A stretch of 64,000 bases of DNA from Alphaproteobacteria bacterium (GTDB lineage: Bacteria; Pseudomonadota; Alphaproteobacteria; JAUHZC01), in NCBI GenBank assembly GCA_030425805.1, contig JAUHZC010000002.1, positions 159,020 through 223,019 of the forward strand, written 5' to 3'. The notes beneath the pieces were generated by a model that was not told where the DNA came from, ran no database searches, and worked only from the letters and a program-made list of their open reading frames with translations. Position numbers and translations under genes: made by a program. Within the stretch, counting starts at the first letter, position 1. Every line of letters begins with the position of its first letter. This document shows positions 57,107 through 58,641 of the stretch, piece after piece.

Positions 57107-57391
57107 CTATAAAACAGCCCGCAGACGTTTCAGAGACTCTTCTTTACCGAGAAGCTCCATGACTTCAAAAACACTTGGAGAGATAGTGCGGCCTGTGAGC
57201 TTTGCACGCAAAGGTTGTGCTACCTTCCCGAGCTTAAGATCCTCAGCTTCTGCAAAATCACGGGCAGTTTGCTCGAGAATCTCATGGTCCCAAGCTTCCT
57301 GAGCTTGGGCTACATTTGCAAATTTTTCTAACATCTCAAGGTTTTCAGGTGTGAGGAACTTTTCTGCCTTCTCATCCAGAATCTCAAGATT
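57107..57391. repeat. direct repeat copy A: duplicate of the last about 285 bp of gltX including its stop codon
   Basis: About 96% identical to 58357-58641. Direct nucleotide comparison shows about 11 mismatches over 285 bp. Confidence 0.85.
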
Positions 57392-57511
57392 AAGCCTTCT
57401 TAAAGCTGGGATACGGCTGAAGCGACTTTGCTCCGCACAAAGATCTTGATTCAAATCCATGAGCGGCATAGACACCACACACAGACATAAAAAAACCCAT
57501 GGGATTTTCAC
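57107..57511 (-). pseudogene. gltX 3'-end remnant fused to a novel 40-codon N-terminus
   Basis: 134-aa ORF. Its last 94 aa are about 97% identical to the GltX C-terminus (LDEKAEKFLTPENLEMLEKFANVAQAQEAWDHE...LKRLRAVL). Confidence 0.5.
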
Positions 57512-57551
57512 CCCATGGAGTTTTCGCTCTCAGCAGAAGTATGCCCAAACT

Positions 57552-58277
57552 CTAACCTATCGTATCACGATACATTTTCCTCATGTGTTTCTTTATTTTC
57601 ATTAGCAATTTAAAGGTATCTGTCACACCATTAAGGTGGTCGCGCCCTGCTTCCAAAAATTCCTTTATGCCTTTTGGATTCTCCAAGAACACAATTTGTT
57701 CAGACAAGGTCTTAATCTCAACTGAATCTGTTGGTGCACCATACACTGCTGCAAGCTCTCCAACCAACTGAGCCCCTGCACCTTCAGTCATTTTTTTGAG
57801 TTTTAGTAGCTTTTTTAATCCTTTAATCATAGCACCTGTGTGCTTCTGCGCAATTTCTGCTTCTGCAGAGTAGCCCTTTTGTTTCATTGCCTCTACTGTT
57901 TCTTTCAAGGCAATCTCCATTTTCTCCGGAGAGGCCCCTTTCATTTTTTCATTTGTATAACCCAGACTATCAGCTACCTCATCAAAGAGCTTTCCTGCCT
58001 TTACAAGATTCTTATCCGTCTTTCCTGCTTTATCTAGTTTCTGAAGCTTAGGTATTATCCTTTCTAGTTTATCATATGCCTTTATCACCTTGACTAGCTT
58101 TTCCTTAAGAGCAGGGATTTTAGATTCATCAATTTTATATTTTGCTTCAGCTTTTTCCTCTTTTGCTGAAACTGGCTTTGCCTCATCAACAGCATAAGCC
58201 TGGGCTGTCATGGCAAAAACACTAACCAATAAATACTTTGAAAAATTCTTATTCATTTGAATACCTTTTTTATACAA
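57552..58277 (-). CDS. hypothetical secreted Lys-rich helical protein (cargo between the gltX 3' direct repeats)
   Basis: 241 aa. Signal peptide MNKNFSKYLLVSVFAMTAQAYA. Start possibly at the internal Met. AT-rich leader between 58278 and 58356. Confidence 0.55.
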   Translation of the reverse strand: MYKKGIQMNKNFSKYLLVSVFAMTAQAYAVDEAKPVSAKEEKAEAKYKIDESKIPALKEKLVKVIKAYDKLERIIPKLQKLDKAGKTDKNLVKAGKLFDEVADSLGYTNEKMKGASPEKMEIALKETVEAMKQKGYSAEAEIAQKHTGAMIKGLKKLLKLKKMTEGAGAQLVGELAAVYGAPTDSVEIKTLSEQIVFLENPKGIKEFLEAGRDHLNGVTDTFKLLMKIKKHMRKMYRDTIG

Positions 58278-58356
58278 TATGAATATTTTAATTAAAAAAG
58301 GTTAATTGACAATGAATAATAAATATTGACGCAGAAAATACTTATCTTTTAAATCG

Positions 58357-58641
58357 CTATAAAACAGCCCGCAGACGTTTCAGAGACTCTTCTTTACCGA
58401 GAAGCTCCATGACTTCAAAAACACTTGGAGAGATAGTGCGGCCTGTGAGCTTTGCGCGCAAAGGTTGTGCTACCTTCCCGAGCTTAAGATCCTCAGCTTC
58501 TGCAAAATCACGGGCAGCTTGCTCGAGAACCTCATGATCCCAAGCTTCCTGAGCTTGGGCTACATTTGCAAACTTTTCTAACATTTCAAGGTTTTCAGGC
58601 GTGAGAAACTTTTCTGCCTTCTCATCCAGAAGCTCAATTGG
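58357..58641. repeat. direct repeat copy B (within intact gltX 3' end)
   Basis: See copy A. Confidence 0.85.

Follow-up and report, generated by a model that had tools for sequence, protein, structure and literature searches.

The 64-kb window analyzed here (the whole stretch of alphaproteobacterial DNA under study) contains the 3' end of gltX, the gene for glutamate--tRNA ligase, in two direct copies that bracket a single orphan gene for a putative secreted protein. This locus raises the question of how a cargo gene came to stand at the end of an essential gene. The arrangement may have arisen by the insertion of DNA or by a local rearrangement, and the displaced copy of the gltX end may be a gene of its own or a relic.

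The duplicated end of gltX

For the repeat itself, the two copies share 281 nt with nine mismatches (96.8% identity; Table 1). A duplication of about 285 bp and about 96% identity was described in the first-pass annotation; it is indeed real and direct, with its extent reduced to 281 nt because the last four positions on each side (57388-57391 and 58638-58641) are all mismatched. Apart from this repeat (E = 1e-131), a sensitive self-BLAST found no long dispersed repeat in the window, and all exact 31-mers that occur twice in the 64 kb lie inside it. The stop codon TAG (CTA on the plus strand) forms the exact first bases of homology in both copies, and the bases past the two stop codons, which belong to the flank of copy A and to the start of the cassette, respectively, are unrelated to each other. 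The inner end of the repeat, 281 nt into gltX, is abrupt as well, and the next 164 and 363 nt align at the mean score of shuffled sequences (Smith-Waterman). A visible match past this boundary, CGGCATAG, was considered as a sign of further homology and rejected, given that its Smith-Waterman score equals the shuffle mean. A tblastn search of the window revealed no third gltX fragment, and no compositional break was found within gltX at the repeat boundary (GC3 0.46 vs 0.40, p = 0.29).

Table 1. Features at the gltX locus, listed in the direction of gltX transcription (positions refer to the window).
Feature	Position	Strand	Remarks
gltX, full-length glutamate--tRNA ligase	58357..59748	-	463 aa from ATG at 59748; ORF reaches 59775
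Copy B, 3' end of functional gltX including stop codon	58357..58637	-	continuous with gltX body in Logan contig L083
Inserted cassette between the repeat copies	57388..58356	-	969 nt; GC 0.31-0.42 vs 0.46-0.52 in housekeeping genes
Promoter-like site TTGTCA-16-TAAAAT, upstream of cargo gene	58285..58312	-	10/12 consensus positions; consensus match only
Cargo gene	57552..58256	-	234-aa Lys-rich helical protein; predicted N-terminal Sec-type signal peptide (MNKNFSKYLLVSVFAMTAQAYA, then VDE)
Intrinsic terminator of cargo gene	57489..57519	-	10-pair stem, 4-nt loop, seven-U run
Chimeric ORF	57107..57511	-	134 aa; GTG start at 57511, in loop of terminator hairpin
Spacer, terminator to copy A	57388..57488	-	101 nt; without detectable similarity elsewhere in window
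Copy A, displaced gltX 3' fragment	57107..57387	-	92 codons plus stop; without remaining ~370 codons
Flank downstream of copy A	57029..57106		78 nt, reaching convergent 1203-aa gene; without terminator

Between the two copies, only copy B belongs to a complete gene. The gltX product has the Pfam domains tRNA-synt_1c and Anticodon_2 and scores 510.8 bits against the TIGR00464 equivalog (cut-off 290), covering profile positions 2-464 of 470, and the gene is left intact, with its reading frame complete despite the insert. Copy A matches only the C-terminal parts of these profiles (Anticodon_2, positions 49-140 of 141; TIGR00464, positions 379-464). RNA folding identified no terminator after either gltX stop codon. 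Because neither stop codon is followed by a terminator, gltX transcripts would probably run on into the cargo gene and end at the terminator of the latter. The 78-nt flank beyond copy A is presumed to be the original downstream sequence of gltX.

Independent support for this structure was provided by Logan k-mer contigs (k=31) of run ERR3420974, which confirm three of the four junctions, the exception being the one between copy A and the flank. Contig L001 corresponds to window positions 58386..57293 (100% identity) and leads from the cassette into copy A with five copy-A variants; at its other end, it extends beyond the cassette by the first 30 nt of a gltX end. Contig L083 corresponds to 62612..58543 (100% identity) and covers the stretch from sppA to copy B, including the gltX body, with the five copy-B variants. 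A third contig, L088, matches 50327..53992 at 100% identity. L001 and L083 both break off exactly 30 nt beyond the fifth variant, with the next 35 nt being the same in both copies. A k=31 graph should give such ends wherever a repeat truly has two copies. Because these two contigs carry separate, copy-specific variant paths, the 5'-truncated gltX fragment adjoining the cargo gene is real, and an assembly artefact, which had been named as a possible refutation of the duplication, finds no support at these three junctions.

The differences between the two copies are mostly mild. Eight of the nine are transitions, six are synonymous, and the remaining three are conservative replacements (I/L, I/V, and T/A). 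Among 80 alphaproteobacterial GltX orthologues, these three replacements sit at poorly conserved positions, and an attempt to polarise them by the orthologues was abandoned since the sites are too variable. The Nei-Gojobori estimates are dS = 0.10 and dN = 0.014 (dN/dS = 0.14), and the probability of three or fewer non-synonymous changes among nine is 0.006 under plain neutrality and 0.055 when only transitions are considered. Because the differences are mostly synonymous, it seems that much of the divergence built up at a time when each copy was a working gltX end. This would mean, and the evidence leans this way, that a closely related allele or an element-borne mimic was the source of one copy. 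However, with only nine differences, a model with one constrained copy and one pseudogene decaying in place is not rejected (p of about 0.05-0.25, binomial estimate).

The differences are also unevenly placed. They are clustered toward the inner boundary (permutation P = 0.009), and none falls in the 99 nt adjoining the stop codon (permutation P = 0.019). A conversion tract could be the cause of this skew, which is not predicted by a simple Campbell model. The divergence of roughly 4% had been taken as a sign that the event is not recent. Such dating fails, as the 3-4% may have existed before the insertion in a donor allele, or may have been lowered by gene conversion.

The cassette and its cargo gene

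The DNA between the copies was previously described as 965 bp with a single secreted-protein gene; a single gene is what it holds, and its length is 969 nt. The cassette is one compact transcription unit that consists of a promoter-like site, a gene for a protein with a signal peptide, and a strong intrinsic terminator. The 72-nt segment bearing the terminator (57480-57551) has a folding energy of -25.5 kcal/mol (z = -3.8), and none of 200 shuffled sequences was equally stable. The cargo product had been given as a Lys-rich secreted protein of 241 aa, and the Lys-rich composition and the signal peptide stand, whereas the length is 234 aa when counted from the ATG (241 aa from an upstream TTG). 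The signal peptide is a typical Sec type, with the predicted cleavage between AMTAQAYA and VDE. A search for inverted repeats at the cassette ends and for short target duplications found neither. The cassette does not fit a transposon, IS, or MITE insertion, as it lacks end inverted repeats and a transposase and is flanked by a duplication of 281 nt rather than of 2-15 nt.

The cargo protein appears to be a strict orphan in the collections searched. Only self-matches were returned by a search of 5.8 billion proteins and by an exhaustive phmmer search against 1.84 billion cluster representatives. The protein has no match among the families of Pfam, PHROGs, and NCBIfam, and tblastn found no paralogue of the gene in the window. 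A single-sequence AlphaFold2 model is helical with a mean pLDDT of 59, and Foldseek against the PDB found no fold neighbours at E <= 0.001. With a GC content of 0.386 and a GC3 of 0.35, the cargo gene lies below the housekeeping genes and is similar to the other orphan secreted-protein genes of the window.

Neither the cassette nor the window ORFs scanned for domains revealed an integrase, excisionase, transposase, or other recombinase, or pseudogene debris, in agreement with the first-pass annotation, which had reported no integrase in the window. The remaining window ORFs are recognisably housekeeping genes by eye (atp, nuo, prs, rplY, hppA, and rnj). A comparison of the gltX neighbourhood with related genomes had been proposed, and it could be carried out on distant loci. 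The nearest GltX in the collections searched has 62% amino acid identity, and the relatives in the genome-contig scan range from 56 to 62%. The gltX loci of 80 distant Alphaproteobacteria contain no further gltX fragment within 10 kb and have no neighbouring genes in common with the gltX region described here. Scans of metagenome DNA with an exact 40-mer and with a wobble-degenerate 20-codon pattern returned no matches. In IMG/VR, no fragment-only, attP-like mimic of the gltX 3' end was seen among four matches: L086 holds a full-length gltX, L087 represents the same match, and the other two are on contigs >400 kb. A literature search found nothing that names gltX as an attachment site, and no publication that refers to run ERR3420974.

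Origin of the arrangement

These patterns are probably best explained by a Campbell-type insertion of DNA that carried a gene-restoring gltX 3' end. On the incoming DNA, the orphan secreted-protein gene with its promoter and terminator would have been linked to a copy of the final 281 nt of gltX that stops exactly at the stop codon, and this DNA would have been circular either on arrival or at an intermediate stage. A single reciprocal crossover within the last 281 nt of gltX would then give the order of gltX body, copy B, cassette, copy A, and original downstream flank, leaving the gltX frame complete and a promoterless gltX 3' fragment behind. The strongest single argument is that the homology ends exactly at the stop codon, which points to a gene-restoring attachment region or a coding-derived incoming copy; for a random duplication breakpoint, this coincidence has a chance of about 1 in 100. 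Campbell-type insertion is further favored because one event explains the whole structure, whereas a tandem duplication needs a second deletion that is exact to the stop codon. In addition, the full length of gltX and the GC content of the cassette, which is below that of the housekeeping genes, support an insertion. The direct repeats can still recombine, which would delete the cassette and restore one gltX whose product is changed by no more than three conservative replacements. On the other side, Campbell-type insertion is weakened by the lack of a fragment-only gltX sequence among the IMG/VR matches and of a second gltX fragment at the 80 distant loci.

The crossover may have been catalyzed in two ways, which we rate as about equally likely. 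A site-specific recombinase encoded elsewhere may have acted, which is a tentative suggestion, and the cassette would then be an integrase-less element that is either CIME-like (see below) or decayed. Two features count against an element that encoded its own integrase: the 969-nt insert amounts to exactly one transcription unit, which is not what a decayed prophage or ICE would look like, and an att site is usually shorter than 281 nt. The other possibility, to be held with similar reserve, is that RecA acted on DNA from a very close relative. The locus had been interpreted in the first-pass annotation as a footprint of site-specific integration or recombination. The topology, the exact boundary at the stop codon, and the mostly synonymous differences bear out the footprint, while the term "site-specific" goes too far for a one-unit insert with neither a recombinase nor its remnant.

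A local rearrangement without mobile or foreign DNA, after which copy A decayed in place as a pseudogene, may provide another explanation, which we consider rather unlikely. The gltX 3' end could have been placed downstream of a resident gene by a templated or segmental duplication, through either replication template switching or unequal exchange plus deletion; alternatively, a tandem duplication could have been followed by the loss of the second cassette copy. Such an origin agrees with the lack of a recombinase and of inverted repeats at the cassette ends, and with a cargo composition similar to that of other resident orphan genes in the window. Moreover, local shuffling does occur here, because the same accessory block contains another small gene fragment that has been displaced (53314-53365 vs 54536-54587, 87% identical), and decay in place fits the substitution test described above. 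However, this explanation needs the boundary of the duplication to fall on the stop codon by chance, and the low dN/dS of the copies speaks against it. The tandem form also predicts a second cassette start after copy A, which is absent; for the same reason, the earlier proposal of a tandem duplication followed by cargo gain does not fit in its simple form. It is also conceivable, but very unlikely, that the true arrangement is an empty chromosomal site together with a free or excised 1.25-kb circle, or that two strains were collapsed into one contig. The 99-nt identical end breaks the k=31 contigs, such that the flanks are unlinked across the repeat, and the junction between copy A and the flank is the one that the independent contigs do not cover. 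The short-read graph is equally compatible with the empty site plus a circle, and also with the mixture of two strains. Nevertheless, the cassette is joined to a 5'-truncated gltX fragment with its own variants in the independent assembly, the source assembly runs a contig recorded as 358,424 bp through the repeat, and a 1.25-kb circle without a replication gene could not persist alone.

Under Campbell-type insertion, the displaced fragment is a relic and not a working gene. The first-pass annotation had pointed out an intact 134-aa chimeric ORF that includes this fragment. Such an ORF exists, and it is probably an incidental gene fragment rather than a real gene, because its GTG start sits inside the terminator hairpin of the cargo gene. 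Its first codons are the descending terminator stem and the T-tract, and no promoter-like site was found between the cargo terminator and the displaced gltX copy. That this copy is instead a functional, stand-alone protein with the GluRS anticodon-binding domain (120-134 aa), kept by selection, is highly improbable. A frame that is open across 134 codons, the small number of non-synonymous changes, and the call made by a gene caller on the Logan contig, which starts the ORF of the displaced copy at ATG 57469, 20 nt past the T-tract, are the points in its favor. Against them, this alternative ATG also lacks a promoter-like site, and the product would hold only a part of the anticodon-binding domain model (positions 49-140 of 141). 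Furthermore, when each copy has about 4-5 substitutions, chance alone would be expected to leave a frame of 92 codons open. For annotation, it is advisable to treat the 120-134-aa "GltX-like" ORF as a gene fragment.

Taken together, these findings indicate that the locus is an ordinary recombination scar, in which DNA joined the end of a gene and the gene was kept intact. The locus records a lineage-specific secreted-protein gene gained at the end of an essential gene, in a lineage for which no close relatives have been sequenced, and it illustrates how cargo can be accommodated without harm to gltX. A bolder reading, to which we give very little weight, is that the cassette is a still-mobile, minimal single-gene element of ~1.25 kb, which uses the 281-nt gltX end as its attachment site, is moved in trans, and delivers orphan secreted proteins. 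The recombinase of such an element would be encoded elsewhere in the genome, the element would serve as a landing-pad system, and its secreted proteins would possibly be host-directed, the bacterium being a deep-branching and probably intracellular alphaproteobacterium. The k-mer graph is compatible with an excised circle and an empty site that exist side by side. If the cognate recombinase or an excised form were found, the locus would represent a mobilisable cassette of very small size, together with an integration site that could be used in this lineage.

Comparison with known systems

Campbell-type integration of circular DNA by a single crossover, as with suicide plasmids, duplicates the region of homology directly around the incoming DNA. 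An incoming fragment that extends to the stop codon keeps the target gene intact, and the insert does not have to carry a recombinase gene. Related events occur by homology-facilitated illegitimate recombination during transformation, and integration of this type is known mainly as a laboratory outcome. The topology at gltX is exactly the same. Unlike in the laboratory, however, a natural source for a 1.25-kb circle made of a gltX end and one gene is not evident.

Another comparison is offered by CIMEs (cis-mobilizable elements) and other integrase-less, att-flanked islands, such as those in Streptococcus thermophilus that lie beside ICESt1/ICESt3 at the fda 3' end. Decay or accretion is the proposed origin of these islands, which would be mobile only when helped in trans. 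Similar to the CIMEs, the gltX cassette is a short cargo between direct repeats that originate from a housekeeping gene's 3' end, without a recombination module of its own, and on this sequence-based comparison it could be called CIME-like, given that att-type direct repeats flank an insert without recombination or transfer genes. The two differ in that the att repeats of CIMEs are tens of bases long, compared with 281 nt here, and in that a cognate ICE or integrase is known at the same site in S. thermophilus, whereas none was seen in the 64-kb window, which covers a part of the source contig.

The closest measured counterpart is the cryptic prophage e14, which is integrated in the 3' end of icd in Escherichia coli K-12 and has left the pseudogene icdC (PMC13626634). 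When measured in the same way, the icd/icdC pair of E. coli K-12 extends over 165 nt at 92.7% identity, loses homology within 1 nt of the stop codon, and differs by nine synonymous and two conservative (Asp-to-Glu) codon changes. At icd (with e14 and phage 21) as well as at gltX, an essential or housekeeping gene has its 3'-terminal coding segment duplicated in direct orientation. In both cases, the copy adjoining the insert regenerates the functional gene while a promoterless fragment remains at the far end, the homology ends at the stop codon, and the differences are mostly synonymous or conservative. In comparison with icd/icdC, the gltX repeat is longer and more similar, and its differences are skewed to one end. 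The inserts themselves are unlike each other, as e14 comprises 15.2 kb with its own intE and xisE and phage genes, compared with 969 nt and one orphan gene here. The gltX locus thus has the 3'-end repeats and the regeneration of the frame up to the stop codon that characterize the e14/icd type, and it lacks an internal recombinase or a remnant of one. This kind of scar is already known, and the gltX case is a further instance of it.

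Divergence and transcription of the duplicated gltX end

The nine differences between the two copies of the gltX 3' end (57206-57382 in the displaced copy, 58456-58632 in the functional gene) concentrate toward the gene-internal end (permutation P = 0.009), and none falls within the 99 nt adjoining the stop codon (P = 0.019). Such an uneven spread may reflect a gene-conversion tract, which we consider a candidate explanation. On the minus strand (58357-57489), neither stop codon is followed by an intrinsic terminator of gltX's own. Because the first strong terminator downstream of gltX in this interval belongs to the cargo gene, which encodes an orphan secreted protein, the two genes are probably in part co-transcribed.

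A gltX gene on an IMG/VR contig

The IMG/VR contig IMGVR_UViG_3300014205_008740 (L086), matched in the search for phage-borne mimics of the gltX 3' end, carries a full-length, high-GC gltX of 548 aa (4576-6222), and a second contig (L087) gives the same match. The surrounding DNA is otherwise low-GC and phage-like. This contig could be chimeric; alternatively, it could represent a virus-carried aminoacyl-tRNA synthetase.

Gene content, repeats, and the 1203-aa orphan gene

Many signal-peptide orphan genes with lower GC are found in the window. Together with the STAND-type, DUF2608, and acidic or Ser-rich repeat proteins (see table), these genes suggest that the source organism is a host-associated, possibly intracellular alphaproteobacterium without sequenced close relatives.

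Genes and repeats in the window
Feature	Position	Strand	Remarks
NB-ARC plus TPR (STAND-type) protein	29098-32403	+	1101 aa
DUF2608 protein	20998-21849	-
Acidic or Ser-rich repeat proteins	18472-20442, 50517-52493, 62046-63947
44-nt intergenic element	1181-1224, 20906-20949		two copies, inverted orientation, 93% complementarity
Tandem 45-nt units	51588-51812		four to five, inside gene for 658-aa secreted protein
Orphan protein gene	53417-57028	+	1203 aa; no Pfam, PHROGs, or NCBIfam match

The 44-nt element contains a GC-rich hairpin, and both copies lie downstream of genes; it resembles the small repeated palindromic (REP-like) kind of element. The 45-nt units encode a DRYYDDRRD(P/S)xPPR-like repeat.

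Directly upstream of the 1203-aa gene, an intergenic stretch of 52 nt (53314-53365) is 87% identical to a segment inside that gene (54536-54587), making it a second displaced gene fragment within the accessory block adjoining gltX. The N-terminus of the 1203-aa protein is hydrophobic, and low-complexity modules rich in Ser/Ala/Glu recur at 53.55-53.73 kb and 55.94-56.07 kb. The protein ends in ...KCCTVC, which is similar to eukaryotic prenylation (CaaX/Rab-type) motifs, and with such an ending the protein could be a host-targeted effector.
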